Shown here: one piece after another, positions 3,080 to 57,126 of the stretch
Layout: each line of letters opens with the position of its first letter
Numbering within the stretch: position 1 is the first letter of the stretch
Assembly (NCBI GenBank): GCA_020631995.1
Contig: JACKGJ010000001.1
Coordinates: forward strand, 97,753 to 161,752
DNA: 64,000 nucleotides
Origin: Candidatus Nomurabacteria bacterium
GTDB lineage: Bacteria > Patescibacteriota > Minisyncoccia > Phycocordibacterales > UBA918
Direction: 5' to 3'
Program-made: the position numbers and the translations under genes
Notes under the pieces: generated by a model
Database searches by the model: none
What the model saw: the letters and a program-made list of their open reading frames with translations, nothing else
What the model was told of the DNA's origin: nothing

Positions 3080-5269
3080 ATGGAACCCAAAGAAAACGCT
3101 ATAAATCCAGACTTTTTGAAGCCCTATTCCCCTCAGGACAATGAGAAGAATTTGTATAAAAAGTGGGAGGAATCAGGATACTTCAATCCTGATGTCTGTA
3201 TTGAGAGAGGAATCACTGCATCTGATGCTGAGACATTCTCTATTGTGCTTCCTCCACCAAACGTGACTGGAGTACTTCATATGGGTCACGCAGCCATGTT
3301 GGCCGTTGAGGATCTACTAGTGCGTTACCACCGAATGCTCGGCAAGCGTACCTTGTGGATTCCTGGCACCGACTCAGCAGCCATCGCTACTCAGTCAAAG
3401 GTAGAAGGTGAAATCTATAAAAAAGAAAAAAAGACACGACATGATATCGGCCGTGATGAACTCCTTAAAAGAGTAGGAGAATTTGCTGAAGCTAGCAAAG
3501 ACACAATCATTAGTCAGACCAAGAGTATGGGCTCGAGTTTAGACTGGAGTCGTTATGCATACACACTAGATGAAACGCGGTACAAAGCGGTAATGGAAGC
3601 TTTCATGCGGATGTATGATGCCGGACTTATTTACCGTGGTGAGAGGATTGTTAACTGGGACCCAAAGGGACAAACGACCATTTCTGATGATGAGATTGTT
3701 CATGAAGAACGTAAAGAGAAATTCTACTACTTAAAGTACGGACCATTCACTATTGGTACATCACGACCCGAGACAAAGTTTGGTGACAAGTATGTAGTGA
3801 TGCATCCAGACGACGCTCGATATAAGGAGTATGAGCATGGCCAAACGCTTGAACTCGAGTGGATTAATGGACCAATTACCGCCACTGTAATCAAGGATGA
3901 GGCAATTGATATGGAGTTTGGTACTGGTGTAATGACAATCACTCCGTGGCATGATGCAACTGACTTTGAGATTGCAGGTCGTCATAACTTAGATAAGGAA
4001 CAAGTTATTGATGAGCGTGGAATACTACTTCCTATTGCTGGTGAATTTGCAGGTCAACATATTAAGAAGGCGCGTGAAAACATTCTCGAAAAACTTCGCA
4101 GTAAAGGTCTACTGGAGAAAGAAGAGGACTATACACACAACGTTTCAACTGCAGAACGTACCGGCGAGGTTATCGAGCCACAAATTAAGGCCCAGTGGTT
4201 TATTGCAGTTAACAAGAAAGTTGAGTTCCCTGACGGAAGAGTGATGACCCTTAAGGAGCGTATGCGTGAAGCTGTCGAAGGTGAGGAAATAAAGATAGCG
4301 CCAGACCGTTTCAATAAAACCTACTATCACTGGATAGATAACTTACGTGACTGGAACATCTCTCGTCAGATTTGGTTCGGACATCGGGTTCCAGCGTGGT
4401 TCACAGGAAACGAAGTAAAAGTACAAATTGAGTCACCGGGAGAAGGTTGGGAGCAAGATCCTGACACACTGGATACTTGGTTCTCTTCTGGGCTTTGGAC
4501 TTTCTCGACTCTTGGTTGGCCAGAGGAGACAGCAGATTTCAAAACTTACCACCCAACCACTGTCTTAGAGACAGGTTACGACATTTTATTCTTCTGGGTA
4601 GCAAGAATGATTTTGATGAGCACTTTCTTAGTAGGTGAGGTTCCTTTCAAGAATGTTTACCTACACGGTATGGTCCGAGATGGAAAAGGACAAAAAATGT
4701 CAAAGTCTAAAGGAAATATCATTGATCCTTTGGATATGATTGAAAAGTACGGTGCAGACGCAACTCGCTTATCACTAGTAGTGGGAGCTGCTCCAGGGAA
4801 TGACGTACCTCTTTCTGAAGATAAGATTCGCGGCTACAAACACTTCGCTAATAAACTCTGGAACATTAGTCGTTTTGTACTTACTAACACAGAGGGGAAA
4901 AAAGATATTGATAAGTCTTTACTTTCCCCACGTGACCAGGAAATATTAGATGGATTTTACACTGTCGCTAAAGAAGTAGGTGACGATATTGAAAAATTCG
5001 GCTTATACCTTGCAGCCGACAAAGCTTACCATTATGTATGGGATGAACTGGCTGCAAAAATACTCGAGGAATCAAAGCCAATACTAAATGGTGACGATAG
5101 TGAAGCAAAACAAGCACGCCAGCAAGTTTTAATTGAGTGTCTAATTGGTTCATTGAAACTCCTACATCCATTTATGCCGTTTGTAACTGAGGCTGTATGG
5201 CAGAGACTTCCAGAAGATATGAAGGATACTGAATTCTTGATGGTTGCAAAGTGGCCCACAAAGAACTAA
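3080..5269 (+). CDS. valS: valine--tRNA ligase (short form, 729 aa)
   Basis: PPPNVTGVLHMGHA (HIGH), KMSKSKGN (KMSKS), DTWFSSGLWTFSTLGWPE, WNISRQIWFGHRVPAW are ValRS-type class I motifs; lacks the long C-terminal coiled coil. Confidence 0.85.
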   Translation: MEPKENAINPDFLKPYSPQDNEKNLYKKWEESGYFNPDVCIERGITASDAETFSIVLPPPNVTGVLHMGHAAMLAVEDLLVRYHRMLGKRTLWIPGTDSAAIATQSKVEGEIYKKEKKTRHDIGRDELLKRVGEFAEASKDTIISQTKSMGSSLDWSRYAYTLDETRYKAVMEAFMRMYDAGLIYRGERIVNWDPKGQTTISDDEIVHEERKEKFYYLKYGPFTIGTSRPETKFGDKYVVMHPDDARYKEYEHGQTLELEWINGPITATVIKDEAIDMEFGTGVMTITPWHDATDFEIAGRHNLDKEQVIDERGILLPIAGEFAGQHIKKARENILEKLRSKGLLEKEEDYTHNVSTAERTGEVIEPQIKAQWFIAVNKKVEFPDGRVMTLKERMREAVEGEEIKIAPDRFNKTYYHWIDNLRDWNISRQIWFGHRVPAWFTGNEVKVQIESPGEGWEQDPDTLDTWFSSGLWTFSTLGWPEETADFKTYHPTTVLETGYDILFFWVARMILMSTFLVGEVPFKNVYLHGMVRDGKGQKMSKSKGNIIDPLDMIEKYGADATRLSLVVGAAPGNDVPLSEDKIRGYKHFANKLWNISRFVLTNTEGKKDIDKSLLSPRDQEILDGFYTVAKEVGDDIEKFGLYLAADKAYHYVWDELAAKILEESKPILNGDDSEAKQARQQVLIECLIGSLKLLHPFMPFVTEAVWQRLPEDMKDTEFLMVAKWPTKN

Positions 5270-6575: not shown

Positions 6576-6753
6576 ATTGCAACGATAGCATCGGATGATA
6601 ACAGGTCCTCTCAACCCCACCATCAGTAGAAAGAACACCAACACCAAAGAACTGATCAATAACAATAACGTAACCAAGACTTTCCAGAGCCGAAAGAACT
6701 GGTTCGTCAGAAGCTATTAAAGCCTCTATCTGCTTACTTAGGTCCCTATTCAC
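6553..6753 (-). CDS. hypothetical small protein (66 aa)
   Basis: GTG start preceded by AAGGGAGG 8 nt upstream; no recognisable family. Confidence 0.45.
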   Translation of the reverse strand: MNRDLSKQIEALIASDEPVLSALESLGYVIVIDQFFGVGVLSTDGGVERTCYHPMLSLQYKQTADP

Positions 6754-6965
6754 TTAACTTCCTCCCTTAAGTGACTTTTTGTACTTCCTGAAACGAAAAT
6801 CCGCCTCAGGAGGCGGATTTCGTATTCATACAAAAGCTCCCTCCTAGCGCGGATTTGAATTAGAGGACGATGTGCAGAAACTGCTCCAGGTGGCGATTGT
6901 AGTGGTGATTTTCATCACTATAATTATAGTCTCATAATTAAACCTGTCCAGAATGATGATGTGCA

Positions 6966-6993
6966 TTGAAAAATGACGCAAAACCAGTATAAT
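6966..6993 (+). promoter_or_regulatory. sigma70-like promoter of tRNA-Phe
   Basis: TTGAAA, 16-nt spacer, TATAAT; the -10 ends 9 nt before tRNA position 1. Confidence 0.55.
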
Positions 6994-7002
6994 CGTGGAA
7001 CC

Positions 7003-7075
7003 GCTTGGGTAGCTCAGTTGGTAGAGCGCTGCCCTGAAGAGGCAGATGTCGGCAGTTCGAGCCTGCCCCCAAGCA
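7003..7075 (+). tRNA. tRNA-Phe (anticodon GAA)
   Basis: Acceptor GCTTGGG/CCCAAGC, anticodon stem CTGCC/GGCAG with loop CTGAAGA, T arm GGCAG-TTCGAGC-CTGCC. Confidence 0.9.
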
Positions 7076-7290
7076 CAGAATAAAATAACCCTGCCTACGC
7101 AGGGTTATTTTATTCTGTGCTTGGGGAGGAAGCCAAAGGCTTGGCTTCCGTGCAGGCTCGAAGCGCCGCAGGATGTTTTTGTGAGCCTGTCCTAGCAAAC
7201 AAAAACCCGATGCGCCGACCAGGAAAGCGAGCTTATTTTGTAAATGTAATGATACAAAATAACCGCTATTCCGGGTCGAGTCTGCTCAAT
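7067..7290. repeat. tRNA-Phe-linked composite element (28-bp perfect palindrome, antisense copy of tRNA 3' half, extra hairpins)
   Basis: 7067-7094 pairs perfectly with 7099-7126, and the left arm includes the last 9 nt of the tRNA. 7152-7162 is the exact reverse complement of T-arm nt 7056-7066, separated by a 25-nt inserted hairpin. Hairpin TTATTTTGTA/TACAAAATAA at 7233-7262. Confidence 0.7.
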
Positions 7291-7306
7291 GATTAAAACT
7301 AGATTC

Positions 7307-7600
7307 CTACTCCCCTCCTAAACCAAAAAAGTTTTCAAACTGTGAATACCCTGGAATCTCTTTTATACTTGCACTAAATTCTCCGTTAGAAAATCCTAGC
7401 GCTTCTACATAAGGACCAATGATGTAGTAATAAACGGCAAATGGAAGTCCCACCAATAGAGCGTACCAAATCATCGTCAACCAAAAAGTGGTGGTCTGAT
7501 AACGACGTAGCTTGTGAAGCATCTGGTTGTTTTCTTCCAGCAAGACGTTCTGTTTTTCTACAGCTTTCTTTAAACTGCTTATATCTGAATCTGGTGGCAT
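7307..7600 (-). CDS. hypothetical membrane protein (97 aa)
   Basis: Track ORF; central hydrophobic helices (FWLTMIWYALLVGLPFAVYYYIIGPYV). Confidence 0.5.
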   Translation of the reverse strand: MPPDSDISSLKKAVEKQNVLLEENNQMLHKLRRYQTTTFWLTMIWYALLVGLPFAVYYYIIGPYVEALGFSNGEFSASIKEIPGYSQFENFFGLGGE

Positions 7601-16128: not shown

Positions 16129-16342
16129 TGGTGTGAGAAAGCTTACAGTGCTTTCGCAAGACCTTTTGAGATATTTTGTAATTCCGAGCTTGTCGAGGAA
16201 GAAACAAAATATACAAAAGGTGTACCGCATCCGTAGGATGAGGAAGCCTGGGAGGCTTTCGCAAGACCTTGCCTGACAATTTATGAGGCGTATAAGCCTC
16301 TATCAATAAATGTCGATAAGGTGTACAGCGACTGTAAGTCGC
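16129..16342 (-). repeat. two tandem copies of the family 1 hairpin core (not tRNA-linked)
   Basis: Minus-strand reads CATCC-TAC-GGATG-C-GGTACACC + long hairpin ACCTTTTGTATATTTTGT/ACAAAATATCTCAAAAGGT + GGTCTTGCGAAAGC..., and GCGAC-TTACA-GTCGC-T-GTACACC + ACCTTATCGACATTTAT/ATAAATTGTCAGGCAAGGT + GGTCTTGCGAAAGC... Confidence 0.65.
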
Positions 16343-22272: not shown

Positions 22273-22506
22273 TTATAGCAGTCCTTCGAGACTAGCAGTA
22301 TAACTTCTAATGAAAGCTGGAATGATAAACAATAGTGCAATAAGTGGTAGTACCACCATTGCAATAGTTACCCACATAGTTATTTGAAAGTAGCGTCGAG
22401 TTTTTTCAACTGATACATACACTGCATCAATTTTCGTTTCGAGCTCTGAAAGCTTACTTTGAATATTTGGTTCCATATACTTAAGTATAGCAAGCTTCAC
22501 AGACAC
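22273..22506 (-). CDS. hypothetical small membrane protein
   Basis: 77 aa, one TM helix. Confidence 0.45.
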   Translation of the reverse strand: MSVKLAILKYMEPNIQSKLSELETKIDAVYVSVEKTRRYFQITMWVTIAMVVLPLIALLFIIPAFIRSYTASLEGLL

Positions 22507-22763
22507 CTATCTGCTTTATTAGCTCCATATTTTATTAAAATGAGTTTGTCTTCTTTCTTCCAGCTTTTAATTTCAGCTTCACGTTTTAAAGCCAGGGAAC
22601 GACTTGAGTGTTCCTCTGTATAGACGAACTTAACCACCTTCCTCGCACGAGTATAGTGGCCTCCTTTTCCATTTTTATGTGCCTCAAAACGACGCTCGAG
22701 ATTATTAGTAATGCCGGTATATAAGGACCCATCACCGCACAGAAGAATATATACAAAATACAC
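22497..22763 (-). CDS. GIY-YIG nuclease superfamily protein (UPF0213-like)
   Basis: YFVYILLCGDGSLYTGITNNLERRFEAHKNG GIY-YIG motif. Confidence 0.85.
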   Translation of the reverse strand: MYFVYILLCGDGSLYTGITNNLERRFEAHKNGKGGHYTRARKVVKFVYTEEHSSRSLALKREAEIKSWKKEDKLILIKYGANKADRCL

Positions 22764-28608: not shown

Positions 28609-28830
28609 ACGTACTAAGAAATTATACTAACCACTTCACGTGCAAAGGTGAGAACGAGATTGAGTCCAGTAATCATAAAATCCACAAACAATTCCAATAG
28701 CTTGAGTAAGAAGTTGAGAAAAGTTTTGATGATAGCAATAAGGCTGTCCATAGGTAGATTTTATCATATGTTTATTGAAAGAAGGGACTTGGTCATGAAA
28801 ATTTTACTGCGTAAAATTTCTCGACCCGTG

Positions 28831-29076
28831 AAAAGCAAAACTGTTTGCTTTTCACCGCTTGGCTACGGCATCGCTCCGGTCTTCAAGTCCCTATACCAGC
28901 AAAGCAGTTGTTTGTGAGGGGACTTGAAACTTACAGTTTCAGTACACCTTTTCGATATTCCCCTTCACAAGTTCTGGGAATATCTGAAAAGGTCTTCAAG
29001 TCCCACAAGACAGTTCCCCGAACTGTCTTTTTCGCTCACACAAAATAAAAGCCCCCATTAGGGGGCTTTTATTTTG
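28831..29076 (+). repeat. tRNA-Asp-linked composite element (family 1 core plus copies of the tRNA-Asp T-arm/acceptor 3' half)
   Basis: GAAACT-TAC-AGTTTC hairpin, GTACACC, long hairpin ACCTTTTCGATATTCCCC/GGGAATATCTGAAAAGGT. Then TTCAAGTCCC, a 26-nt hairpin and TTCGCTCACACAAAATA, which together are the reverse complement of tRNA-Asp nt ~29071-29096. Extra GGGACTTGAA/TTCAAGTCCC copies at 28882-28926. Confidence 0.7.
29044..29076. terminator. bidirectional terminator next to the tRNA-Asp 3' end
   Basis: AAATAAAAGCCCCCATTAGGGGGCTTTTATTTTG. Confidence 0.75.
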
Positions 29077-29221: not shown

Positions 29222-29384
29222 AATTTGTGTCGACGGGAGGGATGAAGCTTACAGCTTCCGTACACCTTTTCGATATTTCCTTTCATTACTTCAGGAAATA
29301 TCTGAAAAGGTCATCATTCTCTCCCGCGCACAAAATCACTCTTGCGCAAAGCTCCATGCATTCGCTTTACGCTCGGTGTTTTTG
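29222..29384 (+). repeat. tRNA-Met-linked composite element (family 1 core plus direct and inverted copies of the tRNA 3' half)
   Basis: 19-nt exact direct repeat TTTGTGTCGACGGGAGGGA at 29224-29242 and 29381-29399 (the latter inside the tRNA). GAAGCT-TAC-AGCTTC hairpin, GTACACC, 17-bp hairpin, then inverted copy TCATCATTCTCTCCCGCGCACAAAAT at 29311-29336. Confidence 0.7.
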
Positions 29385-29458
29385 TGTCGACGGGAGGGAA
29401 TGATCCTCCGACCTCGGCTTTATGAGTGCCGCGCTCTAACCAACTGAGCTACGTCGAC
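29385..29458 (-). tRNA. tRNA-Met or tRNA-Ile2 (anticodon CAT), elongator type
   Basis: Acceptor GTCGACG/CGTCGAC, D stem GCTC/GAGC (Y11:R24), anticodon loop CTCATAA, T arm GGAGG-ATCATTC-CCTCC (unusual A54/T58). Confidence 0.8.
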
Positions 29459-29540: not shown

Positions 29541-29872
29541 TTGCGGGGCCTGGAATTGAACCAGGGTCTGGAGGTTCTGTTATTCGCTCACTTTCATGAG
29601 TGCATGGACTATCCCATATTCCTGGATTAAAATATCCTTAGGAACTCTCCATTATAGTCTCTGAACCTTCCGTCTGCTTTCGCAGAGGGCTTGGCTGCCG
29701 ATTGCCGAATCTTTACTTTTTTAAAGCATTCACACTCACCCTCTCAGGTCATGTTGTAGCAAGCAAAGCTCTAACGGTATTCCAGCAATTTAGAAGATTT
29801 TTCCATACCGCATTACTGCGATAGGTCACAGTTTCCTATGAGCCTCCCGAGGTACCACTCCTCTACCCCGCT
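29541..29872 (-). tRNA. tRNA(CAT) with initiator-like features, interrupted by a group I intron (exons 29872-29838 and 29576-29541)
   Basis: Spliced sequence gives AGCGGGG-TA-GAGG-AGTGGTA-CCTC-G-GGAGG-CTCATAA-CCTCC-AGAC-CCTGG-TTCAATT-CCAGG-CCCCGCA-A. Features: 1:72 mismatch (A:A) and A11:T24. Confidence 0.8.
29577..29837 (-). ncRNA. group I self-splicing intron (261 nt, no ORF) in the anticodon loop after CAU
   Basis: 5' exon ends in U and the intron ends in G. P1 UCAU/GUGA; P2 hairpin AUCGCA-GUAA-UGCGGU. Classical P/Q/R/S elements: AAAUUGCUGGAAU, AAUCGGCAGCC, GGUUCAGAGACUAUAAUGG, GGGAUAGUCC. Confidence 0.8.
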
Positions 29873-51109: not shown

Positions 51110-51346
51110 TCTAGAATATTACATCCTCCTTGATTCACTGCGTTCATCTGCGGAGGATGTGAGATTCGGTCACTCTTATGGATATTTTGTATTACTTCGC
51201 TCACAAAATATCTCATTCGCTCAACCCCACCTCACTCGCCTCCGGCATCGTTCCGGTTTTCGAATCTCACCGCGAGACACGCAGGTGTCTCGCTCATCCT
51301 CCGCGAATACAAAAAAGTCGCCAAATGGCGCGCTAATTTGTATTCG
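51110..51346 (+). repeat. tRNA-Ser(ACU)-linked composite element
   Basis: 19-nt exact direct repeat GCGGAGGATGTGAGATTCG (51150-51168 vs 51346-51364 in the tRNA). Hairpin GGATATTTTGT/ACAAAATATC. GGCATCGTTCCGGTTTT module. Inverted copy CGAATCTCAC, 25-nt hairpin, ATCCTCCGCGAATACAAA (18-bp perfect with 51337-51354). Confidence 0.7.
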
Positions 51347-51433
51347 CGGAGGATGTGAGATTCGAACTCACGGGCGGTTTTACCCGCCGGCGGTTTAGTA
51401 AACCGCTGGTTTAAACCACTCACCCAATCCTCC
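51347..51433 (-). tRNA. type II tRNA, Ser-like, anticodon reads ACT (unusual)
   Basis: Acceptor GGAGGAT/ATCCTCC, discriminator G, anticodon stem GCGGT/ACCGC with loop TTACTAA, long variable arm GGCGG-GTAAAA-CCGCC, T arm GTGAG-TTCGAAT-CTCAC. Confidence 0.7.
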
Positions 51434-51493: not shown

Positions 51494-51677
51494 ATGGAAA
51501 TTTATTTACATTTCCGAACGAACGCTGAAAGAAAGCTTGCTTACAGAGCAGTACACCTTTTGGATATTTTATTTCACTTTGCTCATAAACTATCTCAAAA
51601 GGTCTTCGAATCCCTCCTTTTCTCGCAGAATATAATCACAAAAAGCTCCGAGCATTCGCTTTTTGTTCTTTATTCTG
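51494..51677 (+). repeat. tRNA-Ser(GCU)-linked composite element
   Basis: GTACACC plus hairpin ACCTTTTGGATATTTTAT/ATAAACTATCTCAAAAGGT. Then TTCGAATCCCTCCTTTTC(t)CGCAGAATA at 51605-51632, a near-perfect reverse complement of tRNA nt 51671-51697. Loop motif AAGCTCCGAGCATTCGCTTT shared with the Met locus. Confidence 0.7.
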
Positions 51678-57024: not shown

Positions 57025-57052
57025 TAACCCTGCGTGGCGTTTAAAAACTCTG

Positions 57053-57126
57053 TCCGCCCTCTTGGATTTGAACCAAGGACCCCAGAGGTATAAGCTCTGT
57101 GCTCTAACCAACTGAGCTAAGGGCGG
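57053..57126 (-). tRNA. tRNA-Ile (anticodon TAT)
   Basis: Acceptor CCGCCCT/AGGGCGG (C1:G72), D arm GCTC-AGTTGGTTA-GAGC, anticodon stem CAGAG/CTCTG with loop CTTATAC, T arm CTTGG-TTCAAAT-CCAAG. Confidence 0.8.

Follow-up and report, generated by a model that had tools for sequence, protein, structure and literature searches.

Why should the 3′ end of an intact tRNA gene be buried in a perfect 28-bp palindrome that is followed by an antisense copy of its own T arm, as is seen for tRNA-Phe in the 64,000-nt stretch of DNA analysed here (the window)? Our answer is that the palindrome is one copy of a widespread family of small, non-coding, modular elements located behind the tRNA genes of the ultra-small bacteria known as Patescibacteria, a family apparently undescribed so far. 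The features described in a first-pass annotation of this locus are all present, at the positions given there or within one or two bases of them. In the following, b denotes the 3′ segment of the tRNA itself, which starts midway through the T-loop and extends as far as the discriminator. A short trailer comes next, then an intrinsic terminator. We use b′ for the inverted copy, in which trailer, acceptor 3′ strand, T-stem 3′ strand and T-loop are reverse-complemented, and b2 for a second forward copy that is often present at the end of a unit. The tRNA-Phe locus comprises the following parts:

6966..6993, + strand: promoter-like site of tRNA-Phe, TTGAAA, 16-nt spacer and TATAAT (11/12 consensus matches), ending 9 nt ahead of the tRNA.
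7003..7075, + strand: tRNA-Phe(GAA), CCA not encoded (Rfam RF00005, 69.4 bits).
7056..7075, + strand: b1, the tRNA-Phe 3′ segment that is copied downstream (sequence reading, tRNA-copy search).
7067..7126, no strand: perfect 28-bp palindrome, arms 7067-7094 and 7099-7126, 4-nt loop CTAC (inverted-repeat search).
7089..7114, + strand: intrinsic-terminator-like centre of the palindrome, stem CCCTGC/GCAGGG, loop CTAC, tail TTATTTTATT (sequence reading).
7105..7126, + strand: first part of b′, reverse complement of trailer, discriminator and acceptor 3′ strand (inverted-repeat and tRNA-copy search).
7128..7149, + strand: hairpin module hpX, GGAAGCCAA-AGGC-TTGGCTTCC, between antisense acceptor and antisense T stem (inverted-repeat search; homologous hairpins at the same position in other genomes).
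7152..7162, + strand: second part of b′, GCAGGCTCGAA, exact reverse complement of T-stem 3′ strand and T-loop (sequence reading, tRNA-copy search).
7163..7277, + strand: structured core, B-family variant, GCGCCGCAGGATG ... CCGCTATTCCGGGTC (inverted repeats, synteny alignment, shared 5′ motif).
7278..7286, + strand: b2, degenerate second forward copy of T-loop and T-stem 3′ strand, GAGTCTGCT against GAGCCTGCC (sequence reading, synteny alignment).

The tRNA ends at 7075 according to Rfam and at 7076 according to ARAGORN (start at 7003 in both), and the discriminator A is read from the sequence at 7075. It is preceded in b1 by the T-loop (7056-7062), the T-stem 3′ strand (7063-7067) and the acceptor 3′ strand (7068-7074). 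The arms of the palindrome are indeed 28 nt long and 100% complementary; by chance about 64000 x 4^-28 such palindromes, effectively zero, are expected in 64 kb. The 25-nt insert with a hairpin is found at 7127-7151 relative to the complement of tRNA-Phe, and its hairpin measures 22 nt in all, with a 9-bp stem (arms 7128-7136 and 7141-7149) and a 4-nt loop. This inserted hairpin is no accident: it is a conserved module that occupies a fixed structural position across loci. Beyond it, direct reading and the copy search agree that 7152-7162 is the exact reverse complement of 7056-7066, and the inverted-repeat search reports a longer inverted match including the antisense T arm (25 nt, 80%). The 28-bp stem is b, trailer and terminator paired with b′, and the 25-nt insert is hpX.

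What follows is a B-type core variant (7163-7277, 115 nt) with inner hairpins at 7164-7217 and 7233-7262, and then a decaying b2 (7278-7286). The further hairpin noticed before corresponds to the arms 7233-7242 and 7253-7262 (TTATTTTGTA/TACAAAATAA, inverted-repeat search). The degenerate T-arm-like copy is present as well: within CGGGTCGAGTCTGC (7272-7285), GTCGAGTCTGC matches the tRNA sequence TTCGAGCCTGC at 9/11 positions. The b2 segment is identical to the tRNA at 7/9 positions in the window and better kept in the loci L155, L162 and L063. Homology of the core is based on a synteny alignment with L155 and L162, on by-eye homology to L063 and on a 5′ motif common to B-type cores. A search of the + strand with R1, a covariance model of the B core built from 13 sequences, left 7163-7277 unmatched; R1 recovers two training copies in the window. 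With ORFs called throughout the window there is no genuine ORF in 7077-7306. The sole overlapping frame is a spurious one of 86 aa (6938-7198, minus strand, antisense to tRNA-Phe), and a protein-coding element was dismissed on this ground.

Part of the palindrome is readily explained by termination. Its centre combines a GC-rich 6-bp stem with a T-rich tail behind a gene, the hallmark of intrinsic terminators, and an A-rich run on the opposite side. This accounts for the centre only, since nothing beyond the inner CCCTGC/GCAGGG and its T-rich tail is terminator-like, and a terminator could do with a much shorter stem, as had been argued. A consensus terminator scan does not list 7089-7114, probably because it extends the stem to the whole palindrome, whose tail is then no longer T-rich. 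The locus could be merely a long, possibly bidirectional terminator that insulates tRNA-Phe from the convergent 97-aa gene (its ORF ends at 7307), with all other similarities coincidental, and the ordinary terminators found in the same place at the empty orthologous sites L163 and L160 are in line with this. However, such a terminator has no need of an exact antisense T-arm copy beyond an inserted hairpin or of the conserved cores that come next, and the same plan recurs at four other window tRNAs and at about half of 106 tRNAs surveyed, each copy matching its own tRNA. We consider the terminator account highly improbable and, as a complete explanation, effectively refuted.

When 7003-7300 is folded as a single read-through RNA, the minimum free energy is −152.8 kcal/mol (z = −12), and the T arm and acceptor 3′ strand of the tRNA are predicted to be locked in a long hairpin. 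The earlier suggestion that read-through unfolds the tRNA thus stands as a structural prediction; to unfolding as the purpose of the palindrome, the mismatches of b with b′ lend no support. Counted in a fixed register, these are of all types and show no wobble bias (13 G.T-type versus 16 A.C-type). An RNA-like wobble signal in an RNAfold-based count (25 GU versus 4 AC) was discarded as an artefact of the folding step on the basis of a mirror-strand control and the fixed-register count. This mismatch pattern fits a decaying DNA-level copy. An A opposite U69 in b′ demonstrates that b′ complements the 3′ strand and is not a copy of the true 5′ strand of the tRNA.

Within the window, antisense copies of their own 3′ end are found at five of the ten tRNAs, several of which also have forward copies. 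The plan common to these five is b, terminator, b′ split by a hairpin at the acceptor/T-stem junction, core and b2. The claim that minus-strand tRNA loci have the same architecture holds for Met, Asp, Ser(GCT) and Ser(ACT), and the architecture is absent from Val, Arg, Thr, Gln and Ile, the tRNAs proposed for comparison. The additional units are:

29227..29383, − strand: unit behind tRNA-Met (tRNA-copy search, module comparison).
28781..29075, − strand: two stacked units behind tRNA-Asp (tRNA-copy search, covariance model).
51551..51676, − strand: unit behind tRNA-Ser(GCT) (tRNA-copy search, module comparison).
51150..51345, − strand: unit behind tRNA-Ser(ACT) (tRNA-copy search, covariance model).
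16131..16340, + strand: two tandem A-type modules with no adjoining tRNA (module search).

The tRNA-Met unit consists of b′ (29313-29326), an A-type core (29260-29312) with a GUA-triloop hairpin, and a b2 (29227-29242) that is identical to the tRNA at 16/16 positions. Behind tRNA-Asp, the first unit contains a terminator, b′ with its hairpin, an A core (28942-28994) and b2 (28916-28928), while the second has b′ at 28882-28892, a B core at 28791-28881 (53.3 bits, E = 1e-11 with R1) and a third forward copy, b3, at 28781-28791. For tRNA-Ser(GCT), b′ (51605-51622) matches at 18/18 positions and adjoins an A core (51551-51604). In the tRNA-Ser(ACT) unit a CTGC-loop hairpin lies between the two parts of b′ (51295-51304 and 51259-51270), followed by a B core (51168-51258) and a b2 (51150-51168) with 19/19 identity to the tRNA. 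The window sequence is also contained in the MAG GCA_020632025.1. At the gathering threshold, Rfam annotates tRNAs, a tmRNA and one group I intron (in tRNA-fMet) in the whole window; group I introns in tRNAs are typical of Patescibacteria according to a published paper.

We then extended the comparison to 106 tRNAs, comprising those of the window and of loci from other genomes, mostly Patescibacteria. In this sample, which is biased towards loci containing the A core described below, 59/106 tRNAs have an antisense copy of at least 9 nt on their downstream side and 0/106 have one upstream, while forward copies are found downstream of 45/106 and upstream of 2/106. This confirms that the element is oriented with respect to the tRNA. 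The copies involve 17 tRNA isotypes, and units of about 90-300 bp occupy the 3′ flank of the gene. A palindrome in the shape of a T or Y can be formed by b, terminator, b′ and hpX together, and most of the 59 loci permit three-way pairing in which hpX emerges from the acceptor/T-stem junction. The module hpX precedes the antisense T stem by 2 nt in most loci and has a co-varying stem of 8-9 bp; its loop is usually CTGC, as in 13 loci.

Perfect inverted copies can also arise without any element, when replication switches template at a terminator hairpin and converts the downstream DNA, as in quasipalindrome correction. The perfect 28-bp arms, the neutral-looking mismatch spectrum and the fact that b′ complements the 3′ strand and trailer rather than the tRNA 5′ strand all agree with such a process, as does the existence of loci with b, terminator and b′ only (L158, L161). 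But template switching can neither place a conserved CTGC-loop hairpin at the same b′ junction in dozens of tRNAs, nor yield cores common to phylum-level lineages, b2 copies or tandem units with unrelated terminators. It is therefore an improbable source of these structures.

The cores themselves are of several kinds. After the same T-shaped palindrome we find at least five types, A, B and at least three more. Type A reads GACCUUUUGAG...CAAAAGGUGUAC and includes a GUA-triloop hairpin, type B reads RRCCGGAG...GAGGYGGGGUC...GUGACC, and in full-length copies the A core is nested within the B core. Compensatory changes affect 13/24 pairs of the A-module hairpins, in which GU pairs outnumber AC pairs on the tRNA-sense strand (19 versus 6), and the alignment of the B core reveals a co-varying 3-bp stem. 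The A-core pattern matches more than 119 genome stretches with tRNA-derived flanks; among the 80 of 119 hosts listed, most are MAGs of Saccharibacteria, Paceibacterota, Kaiser-, Taylor- and Lloydbacteria. Two different MAGs (L040 and L059) share one and the same 53-nt A core, set between different flanking hairpins. These hosts also speak against a cyanobacterial origin, first considered in view of the group I intron in tRNA-fMet, and against Nostoc-type small dispersed repeats; both were dropped because the related loci belong to Saccharibacteria and other Patescibacteria MAGs. The two inverted A modules of L040 might have flanked a transposase; this was rejected, as the DNA between them contains no ORF.

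Such conservation raises the possibility that the units encode a functional structured RNA. Read-through from the tRNA promoter would produce a transcript of b′(hpX), core and b2, or of tRNA, terminator and b′, that mimics the top half of a tRNA: its acceptor/T-stem helix would bear a hairpin at the point from which the D and anticodon arms of a tRNA branch off, and a conserved core would be joined to it. The transcript might be a stable RNA of the 3′ external transcribed spacer (3′ ETS) type, or one matched to the neighbouring tRNA that takes part in processing, acts as a decoy or has a regulatory function. The co-varying hairpins and the conserved loops and junctions of the A, B and hpX modules, the excess of GU over AC in the A module, the strict same-strand orientation, the retention of module sequences across deep Patescibacteria lineages, the exact location of hpX at the acceptor/T-stem junction and the very stable predicted folds are all consistent with this. 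On the other hand, a U-tract terminator separates the tRNA from b′ and a separate promoter was looked for and not found; orthologous loci lack the element or keep it in part, b2 and cores have decayed in one lineage or another, and b:b′ mismatches show no wobble tolerance. The fully paired T-loop would moreover leave an RNA without the T-loop/elbow, which is used by RNase P, RNase Z and the CCA-adding enzyme. There is also no Rfam match: with Rfam 15 at E up to 10 nothing meaningful is obtained on the modules, neither known RNA families nor ribozymes. Overall, we judge an RNA function unlikely. The literature searched contained no description of the element.

Occupied, partial and empty sites can be compared directly at tRNA-Phe. 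Eleven metagenome loci share the same 26-nt tRNA-Phe 3′ end, one of which (L157) ends just past the tRNA. L163, L160 and L164 are empty, i.e. no palindrome reaches into tRNA-Phe, and L163 and L160 have plain terminators. L158 and L161 contain b, terminator and b′(hpX) only. Three different B-type cores are represented by L154/L159, by L156 and by L155/L162, and the window core groups with the last of these. Five loci align in synteny (window, L155, L158, L162, L163), with the same promoter on one side and the same convergent 97-aa gene on the other, so that a single alignment contains full (window, L155, L162), partial (L158) and empty (L163) sites. A lack of the antisense T-arm segment in relatives was to count against the first-pass reading. 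Instead, L063, L071, L101, L121, L154-L156, L158, L159, L161 and L162 all contain the segment, and in each it co-varies with its own tRNA. A large modular family with such presence/absence polymorphism points to an insertional element rather than to a tRNA-specific regulatory device.

The tRNA-Asp array of L081, syntenic to that of the window, contains three b copies with 19/19 identity, each followed by a different terminator, with A and then B cores between them. Decay has proceeded differently in the two arrays: at Asp, b2 and b3 have degenerated in the window but not in L081, where they are intact, and at Met it is the b2 and core of L081 that have degenerated, those of the window being intact. 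Direct repeats of the att type flank the insert at Met (16/16), Ser(ACT) (19/19) and Asp of L081 (three at 19/19). Classic tRNA-targeting integrases yield direct repeats that start in the T-loop and stacked arrays, and the forward copies might accordingly be attR remnants left after the deletion of an island, that is, scars of prophage or ICE integration. Yet only 90-300 bp separate the repeats, an inverted copy is always included, and the intervening material is both conserved and structured in many genomes and behind many tRNA species, with no integrase remnants, no ORFs and no occurrence of the modules in viral contigs. This makes integration scars quite improbable.

In the view that we favour, and to which we give about even chances, the units are mobile, non-autonomous cassettes whose recombination at the tRNA T-loop rebuilds the gene. 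Mobility is suggested by the polymorphism and the arrays. A cassette would recombine with the tRNA gene inside the b segment of about 20 bp in a Campbell-type reaction, with the crossover around T-loop positions 56/57. The gene would be rebuilt from the b of the cassette and gain its terminator, while the previous tRNA 3′ end would be displaced downstream as b2; repeated events would generate stacked arrays. The putative T-shaped palindrome may be the structure recognised by trans-acting machinery, probably in single-stranded form, and would double as tRNA terminator, termination being a secondary use. Among the window genes we found no recombinase or integrase, transposase or reverse transcriptase, and no free or circular form of the element was seen. 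The A-core pattern is absent from IMG/VR viral contigs, where all 29 matches are chance occurrences in coding DNA; a phage origin was dropped for this reason.

The cassette model leaves unexplained how the arms match many tRNAs while the position of hpX stays fixed. Unpaired conserved nucleotides of the A module, its co-varying hairpins and its excess of GU over AC are also expected of a functional RNA. In addition, as no ancestral terminator follows b2 in the window, L155 or L162, a different parse fits just as well, namely a hairpin-closed unit of b′, core and b2 inserted past the tRNA's own terminator. More speculatively, the cassettes may form a system free of protein genes, in which T-shaped DNA (or RNA or single-stranded DNA copies) mimics the acceptor/T-arm duplex and a host enzyme uses the universally conserved T-loop as a generic attachment site. 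Every tRNA gene would then be an integron-like platform that collects non-coding cassettes and is rebuilt at each insertion; in a variant of this idea, the cassettes have a role in the cell as structured RNAs of a new, tRNA-matched class. We put this forward tentatively, as an unlikely extension.

Patescibacteria have genomes of about 1 Mb that are thought to be stripped of mobile DNA, and about half of the sampled tRNA genes carry 100-400 bp of element material. If these are mobile cassettes, they represent a new way to colonise essential single-copy genes without killing them and presuppose a hitherto undescribed recombination machinery. If they are RNAs, a large family of unannotated, tRNA-matched structured RNAs exists in a major bacterial lineage. 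In either case tRNA annotation, assembly and att-site prediction will have to cope with the partial tRNA copies and the long palindromes, and the conserved A, B and hpX modules can be used as markers for Patescibacteria contigs.

How do these units compare with known systems? Some candidates fail on architecture. TIGR-Tas arrays have 36-nt units with two 9-nt spacers, box C/D motifs and an adjoining Tas gene with a Nop domain (PMC12045711). Both these arrays and IS110 bridge RNAs pair with the two strands of a target and were considered for that reason, and the layout here fits neither; there are no TIGR-like arrays at these loci, and the window has no Nop-domain or IS110 gene. A group I or archaeal-type intron in the T-loop and a split or permuted tRNA were rejected because an intact tRNA is always located upstream and the left flank is antisense. 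The 3′ETS-leuZ, the tRNA-like domain of tmRNA and YrlA share structured RNA potential just downstream of a tRNA and an acceptor/T-stem-like helix with one side arm, but in the units the T-loop is fully paired, a terminator intervenes, orthologous loci dispense with the element and Rfam gives no match. The T-shaped inverted terminal repeat of the parvovirus AAV has the layout A-B-B′-C-C′-A′, to which the putative T-shaped fold would formally correspond: a long palindrome, here the T-loop and T-stem segment with its complement, encloses two internal ones, here the acceptor/trailer/terminator arm and hpX. Unlike the AAV repeat, the structure described here is chromosomal and not a genome end, and no Rep/HUH protein or nick site was identified.

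REP/BIME/REPIN, BOX, Correia and MITE-like repeats are likewise short, non-coding, multi-copy, modular and hairpin-forming, and often terminator-adjacent, nested and decaying. In the units, however, the arms are locus-specific copies of the neighbouring tRNA rather than a family consensus, and the orientation to the tRNA is strict. The modules lack a GTAG/CGTC tag and the window genes include no HUH or RAYT gene; nor is there a parent IS for a MITE reading in the window or the inspected loci. The direct repeat, a b segment of 9-22 nt, is longer and more site-specific than typical MITE target-site duplications of 2-9 bp. Parallels are also offered by the tRNA att sites of phages, ICEs and islands (attL/attR of tyrosine integrases), which include a T-loop sublocation class. 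In both, the insert comes after the 3′ end of an intact tRNA, the 3′ segment is directly repeated from the T-loop onwards, and sequence borne by the element restores the gene; tandem arrays at one tRNA and presence/absence polymorphism among related genomes are shared as well. They differ in that the units are only 90-300 bp long, have no ORF and no integrase, contain conserved structured cores as well as the att segment in inverted form, interrupted by a conserved hairpin, and serve at least 17 tRNA isotypes with one family.

The attC sites of integrons and the attP(+) hairpin of CTXphi (XerCD, IMEX) share further traits. Here the junction motif, as read from the sequence, is the T-loop TTCGAA or TTCAAG instead of GTTRRRY, R/L boxes, a dif consensus and, in the window, an intI-like gene are lacking, the cargo is non-coding and the target is the tRNA T-loop. 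The resemblance we propose is purely structural and carries no claim of a dependence on IntI or Xer. Like attC and IMEX sites, the units appear as imperfect palindromes in which structure is kept and sequence varies, with an extra-helical feature at a fixed place, here hpX, and with stacked cassettes. In both cases the chromosomal target would be reconstituted as a duplex when two inverted copies fold back on each other. The arrangement expected after integration of the IMEX type, with inverted arm, loop and target repeat at one junction, corresponds to the order b′, core and b2.

The tRNA-Phe gene of the window is followed by an element composed of the parts listed below.

Parts of the tRNA-Phe element and its upstream signal (window positions)
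6966-6993, plus strand: promoter-like site of tRNA-Phe, TTGAAA-16-TATAAT
7003-7075, plus strand: tRNA-Phe(GAA), CCA not encoded
7067-7094 pairing with 7099-7126: perfect palindrome of 28 bp with a 4-nt loop (sequence reading and repeat table)
7089-7114: normal-looking terminator at the palindrome centre, CCCTGC/GCAGGG followed by TTATTTTATT
7128-7149: 22-nt hairpin (hpX) after the palindrome
7152-7162: GCAGGCTCGAA, after GT, exact reverse complement of the T-loop and T-stem 3' strand at 7056-7066
7164-7217: imperfect long hairpin
7233-7262: hairpin TTATTTTGTA/TACAAAATAA
7278-7286: GAGTCTGCT, degenerate forward copy of the T-loop/T-stem (b2)

The left arm of the palindrome (7067-7094) spans the final T-stem base, the 3' strand of the acceptor, the discriminator base and a 19-nt stretch of trailer; no gene lies inside the element. 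The first-pass annotation had described this locus as a tRNA 3' end within a palindrome followed by an antisense T arm, and its factual statements are all borne out by the sequence and the repeat table. It had also suggested that the stem, if transcribed through, would unfold the acceptor stem. A folding prediction for 7003-7300 as one read-through RNA (MFE -152.8 kcal/mol, z = -12) indeed locks the T arm and the acceptor 3' strand in the long hairpin, while actual read-through or selection for it finds no support. A plain terminator explains only 7089-7114.

We then searched for copies of the last 24 nt of the ten window tRNAs in the 450 nt downstream of each. Antisense copies follow five of them (Phe, Asp, Met, Ser(ACT) and Ser(GCT)), with forward copies as well behind Asp, Met (16/16) and Ser(ACT) (19/19); Val, Arg, Thr, Gln and Ile have neither within this distance. 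Read by eye, the loci share one order: the 3' segment of the tRNA itself from T-loop to discriminator (b), trailer and terminator, an antisense copy of b plus trailer (b'), a conserved core, and a forward copy (b2). In the window loci b' is often divided by a hairpin between its acceptor and T-stem parts. Two hairpin-rich core types recur. The A core, GACCTTTT(C/G)AGATA...TATCNAAAAGGTGTAC followed by a small hairpin, lies behind Met, Asp and Ser(GCT) and also at 16131-16340, away from tRNAs; the B core, RACCGGARCGATGCCG...GTGACC, is found behind Ser(ACT) and in a second unit behind Asp.

The plan is general and directional. Among 106 tRNAs of the window and of loci fetched from other genomes (L006-L124), all with 320 nt or more between them and the nearest locus end, an exact antisense copy (at least 9 nt of the tRNA's own last 22 nt, within 300 nt) occurs downstream of 59 and upstream of none, in a sample biased to A-core loci although many of its tRNAs do not adjoin one. 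Forward copies occur downstream of 45 and upstream of two, and 17 isotypes are affected. The few tRNAs from clearly non-Patescibacteria loci, a very small control, gave trivial matches only.

The A-core pattern, searched in a single genome for each GTDB species, matched at least 119 stretches; among the 119 listed, about 75 are genuine modules and the rest chance matches inside genes. By title (80 of 119) they derive mostly from Saccharibacteria, Paceibacterota, Kaiser-, Taylor- and Lloydbacteria or unclassified MAGs. The pattern yields only chance matches in IMG/VR, and no Rfam family covers the modules. Where a genuine A core follows a tRNA, it does so on the same strand at a distance of 60-170 nt, the tRNAs concerned including Asp, Pro, His, Arg, Leu, Val, Met, Ser, Thr, Trp, Tyr and Phe. 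Such cores are flanked on the left by an antisense T-loop end (...TCGAA or ...TTGAA) and on the right by the forward T-loop 3' part, T-stem and acceptor. Two different MAGs (L040 and L059) have an identical A core of 53 nt between hairpins that differ.

Variants of this arrangement were also seen. At L006 2730-3010, L071 (-) 6587-6940, L084 680-1000 and L077 1-700 an A module sits within partial forward tRNA copies, inserted at the variable-loop position after ..GAGGT, and extra long hairpins replace the anticodon stem. Chains of tRNA-like pseudo-copies follow the real gene in L077, L084 and L006, and the L071 insert is flanked by antisense and forward copies of the anticodon arm. The window region 16131-16340 (+) carries two A-type modules in tandem with no tRNA nearby, the second diverged (GACCTTGCC...GATAAGGTGTAC) and bearing ATGAGGCGTATAAGCCTC; L016 has the related AATGTGAGGCGTA behind A modules, and L040 and L007 have variants of it, which suggests a further module type.

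Full-length copies (L066, L069, L018, L015) have A nested inside B: the antisense tRNA end is followed by AGCCGGAGC-(hairpin)-GAGGCGGGGT, then by [GAG-(hairpin)-GCAA-GACC..GGTGTAC-(GUA-triloop hairpin)], (hairpin)-GTGACC and the forward tRNA end. Alignment of 41 A modules reveals three hairpins with compensatory changes in 13 of 24 pairs. The excess of GU/UG over AC/CA pairs (19 vs 6) is a modest hint that these hairpins matter on the tRNA-sense strand. Thirteen B cores have in common RRCCGGAG-(hp)-CGAGGYGGGGTCG-(hp)-CGTGACC, including a 3-bp stem that co-varies in the alignment read by eye (GCC/GGC, ACC/GGT, GGC/GCC). At least three more core types (GCCYGATTGA.., C(A/C)NGGAAAGGG.. and CRGTTTTTGC..) follow the same structure.

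The hairpin hpX, previously noted as an inserted hairpin, is a module in its own right. In most of the 59 loci with a located antisense T-stem it falls precisely where the acceptor and T-stem parts meet, 2 nt upstream of the T-stem. Its own stem of 8-9 bp varies and co-varies, and its loop is CTGC in 13 loci. The copy at tRNA-Phe (GGAAGCCAA-AGGC-TTGGCTTCC) belongs to a subfamily, AAGC(A/C)AAC-TGC-TT(T/G)GCTT, which no fewer than 12 other loci carry at this position, following different tRNAs. When examples are folded, b, terminator, b' and hpX can form a T- or Y-shaped three-way structure whose helices are T-loop/T-stem with its complement, the acceptor/trailer/terminator arm, and hpX. An hpX-type hairpin (AAGCAAACAGTTTTGCTT, 28833-28850, minus strand) also interrupts the GAGGYGGGGT motif of the B core at 28791-28881 and is missing from the ortholog in L081; thus small hairpin modules seem able to insert alone.

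The tRNA-Phe site itself was compared among relatives. A 97-aa ORF adjoining tRNA-Phe is identical in MAG GCA_020632025.1 and several metagenome assemblies, in which the region is 97-100% identical to the window; other relatives are Saccharibacteria/Patescibacteria MAGs, so that a cyanobacterial origin, at which the group I intron in tRNA-fMet might hint, is rejected. Four of the fetched loci (L063, L101, L121 and an older copy in L071) repeat the order of the window element, i.e. terminator, antisense acceptor, AG-(hairpin)-GT, antisense T-stem/T-loop, B-type core and forward copy, with arms matching the tRNA-Phe of their own genome, and L037 has a plain terminator. Scanning metagenomes with the exact 26-nt tRNA-Phe 3' end of the window gave 11 loci, one of which (L157) ends just past the tRNA. 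The ten uncut loci form a natural series of states.

States of the tRNA-Phe site in metagenome loci
L163, L160, L164: no palindrome extending into the tRNA; plain terminators in L163 and L160
L158, L161: b, terminator and b'(hpX) only
L154, L159: canonical B core
L156: different B variant
L155, L162: same core variant as the window

Aligned in synteny, the site carries the full element in the window, L155 and L162 and is empty in L163; the closest relative, L158, is missing core and b2 (window ~7163-7300). Window and L158 are 86% identical in the upstream flank and 90% in the downstream gene, compared with 73% in the terminator palindrome and 59% in hpX, where compensatory changes preserve the stem. 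The B-core covariance model does not detect the tRNA-Phe core, and its family membership therefore rests on the alignments and the shared 5' motif GCGNCGSAGNATGTTTT.

Units also stack and decay. L081, syntenic with the fMet-Met-Asp locus of the window, contains the cleanest array seen: tRNA-Asp is followed by three identical 19-nt b copies, each with a different terminator and then a b' with hairpin behind it; the first unit precedes an A core, the second a B core. In the window the same array is partly eroded: b2 and the further copy b3 have degenerated, and deletions have removed one terminator and some of a b'. The Met unit shows the reverse, being eroded in L081 (core AAAAGTTGTAC, b2 degenerate) while its window counterpart is intact. 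This opposite erosion indicates that individual parts are dispensable. Palindromes grown by template switching would explain part of these data, accounting for the perfect arms and the palindrome-only loci but not for hpX, the cores, b2 or arrays with unrelated terminators.

The b' of tRNA-Asp has A opposite U69 whereas the true 5' strand has G4, showing that b' complements the 3' strand instead of duplicating the 5' strand; it is also complementary to the trailer of the b on its left, not to that of the b on its right. In fixed register b and b' mismatch at 69 of 986 positions, with all kinds represented (13 G.T-type vs 16 A.C-type), so the arms behave like drifting DNA copies and not like selected RNA helices. 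A strong wobble bias in an RNAfold-based count was an artefact according to a mirror-strand control. These data bear on a possible functional RNA mimicking the top half of a tRNA, for which covariation, conserved loops, sense-strand orientation and deep module conservation argue, and against which stand the intervening terminator, the dispensability and decay of parts and the missing wobble bias in b:b'.

Several tRNAs of the window are unusual in themselves. tRNA-Met(CAT) (29384-29458, minus strand) has a non-canonical T-loop without TTC (GGAGG-ATCATTC-CCTCC), identical in its L081 ortholog and faithfully reproduced in its cassette arms. Just upstream, tRNA-fMet is interrupted by a group I intron (29585-29849, minus strand; RF00028, 61.4 bits); the syntenic L081 tRNA (4534-4605) lacks it, and thus this intron is polymorphic among relatives too. 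A tRNA-Ser with predicted anticodon ACT (A34; 51346-51433, minus strand) lies directly downstream of tRNA-Ser(GCT) and has a B-type cassette to itself; reading AGY codons with an unmodified A34 would be unusual among bacteria. A tRNA-Ile with anticodon TAT (57052-57126, minus strand) represents a rare bacterial route for reading AUA.

Taken together, these loci define a modular, non-coding, hairpin-rich family, strictly tied to the 3' side and strand of tRNA genes, with arms copied from the neighbouring tRNA, tandem stacking, present, absent and partial states at one syntenic site, and lineage-specific decay. No recombinase, transposase, RT or Nop-domain gene was found anywhere in the 64-kb window. 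We infer that the units are most likely non-autonomous mobile cassettes. Ordinary prophage att scars fail as an explanation, being of the wrong size, while here the inserts are conserved and an inverted copy is present.

The simplest route to a-b-terminator-b'-core-b would be one crossover within b that joins the tRNA gene on the chromosome (a-b) to a b-terminator-b'-core molecule, circular or contiguous in some other way. This would rebuild the tRNA, supply a terminator and displace the old 3' end; repetition would yield the L081-type array. Only the 3' side and one orientation would then be seen, because other arrangements destroy an essential, usually single-copy gene. We conjecture that in a single-stranded cassette the pairing of b with b' may rebuild the target as a duplex, from which hpX would protrude as an extra-helical mark. 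Equally consistent is a hairpin-closed b'-core-b unit inserted just after the tRNA's own terminator, which suits the window, where no terminator follows b2. The cassette scheme cannot explain how arms are re-matched to many tRNAs with hpX at a fixed place.

Between ~34000 and 48000 the window contains a type IV pilus/competence-like cluster (PilM, two T2SSE ATPases, T2SSF, prepilin peptidase and several N_methyl pilins), as is typical for Saccharibacteria; it would matter if DNA uptake were how the cassettes spread. A stand-alone GIY-YIG nuclease-domain ORF of 88 aa (22497-22763, minus strand; PF01541, E = 2e-20) adjoins tRNA-Gln; it is the only nuclease-like small ORF noticed near a tRNA.

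We found no published description of this family in an incomplete coverage of the literature, which is absence of evidence only. It seems rather doubtful that it is categorically new, either as a structure-guided cassette system with the T-loop as universal attachment site or as a new class of tRNA-matched RNA. The architecture of TIGR and IS110 is not found here. The folded single-stranded cassette would formally resemble the CTXphi attP(+) hairpin and the integron attC site. In its working the tRNA-Phe element is most like a miniature tRNA-targeting integrative element, though without an integrase, or a MITE/BIME-like modular repeat, though without consensus terminal repeats or a REP tag.
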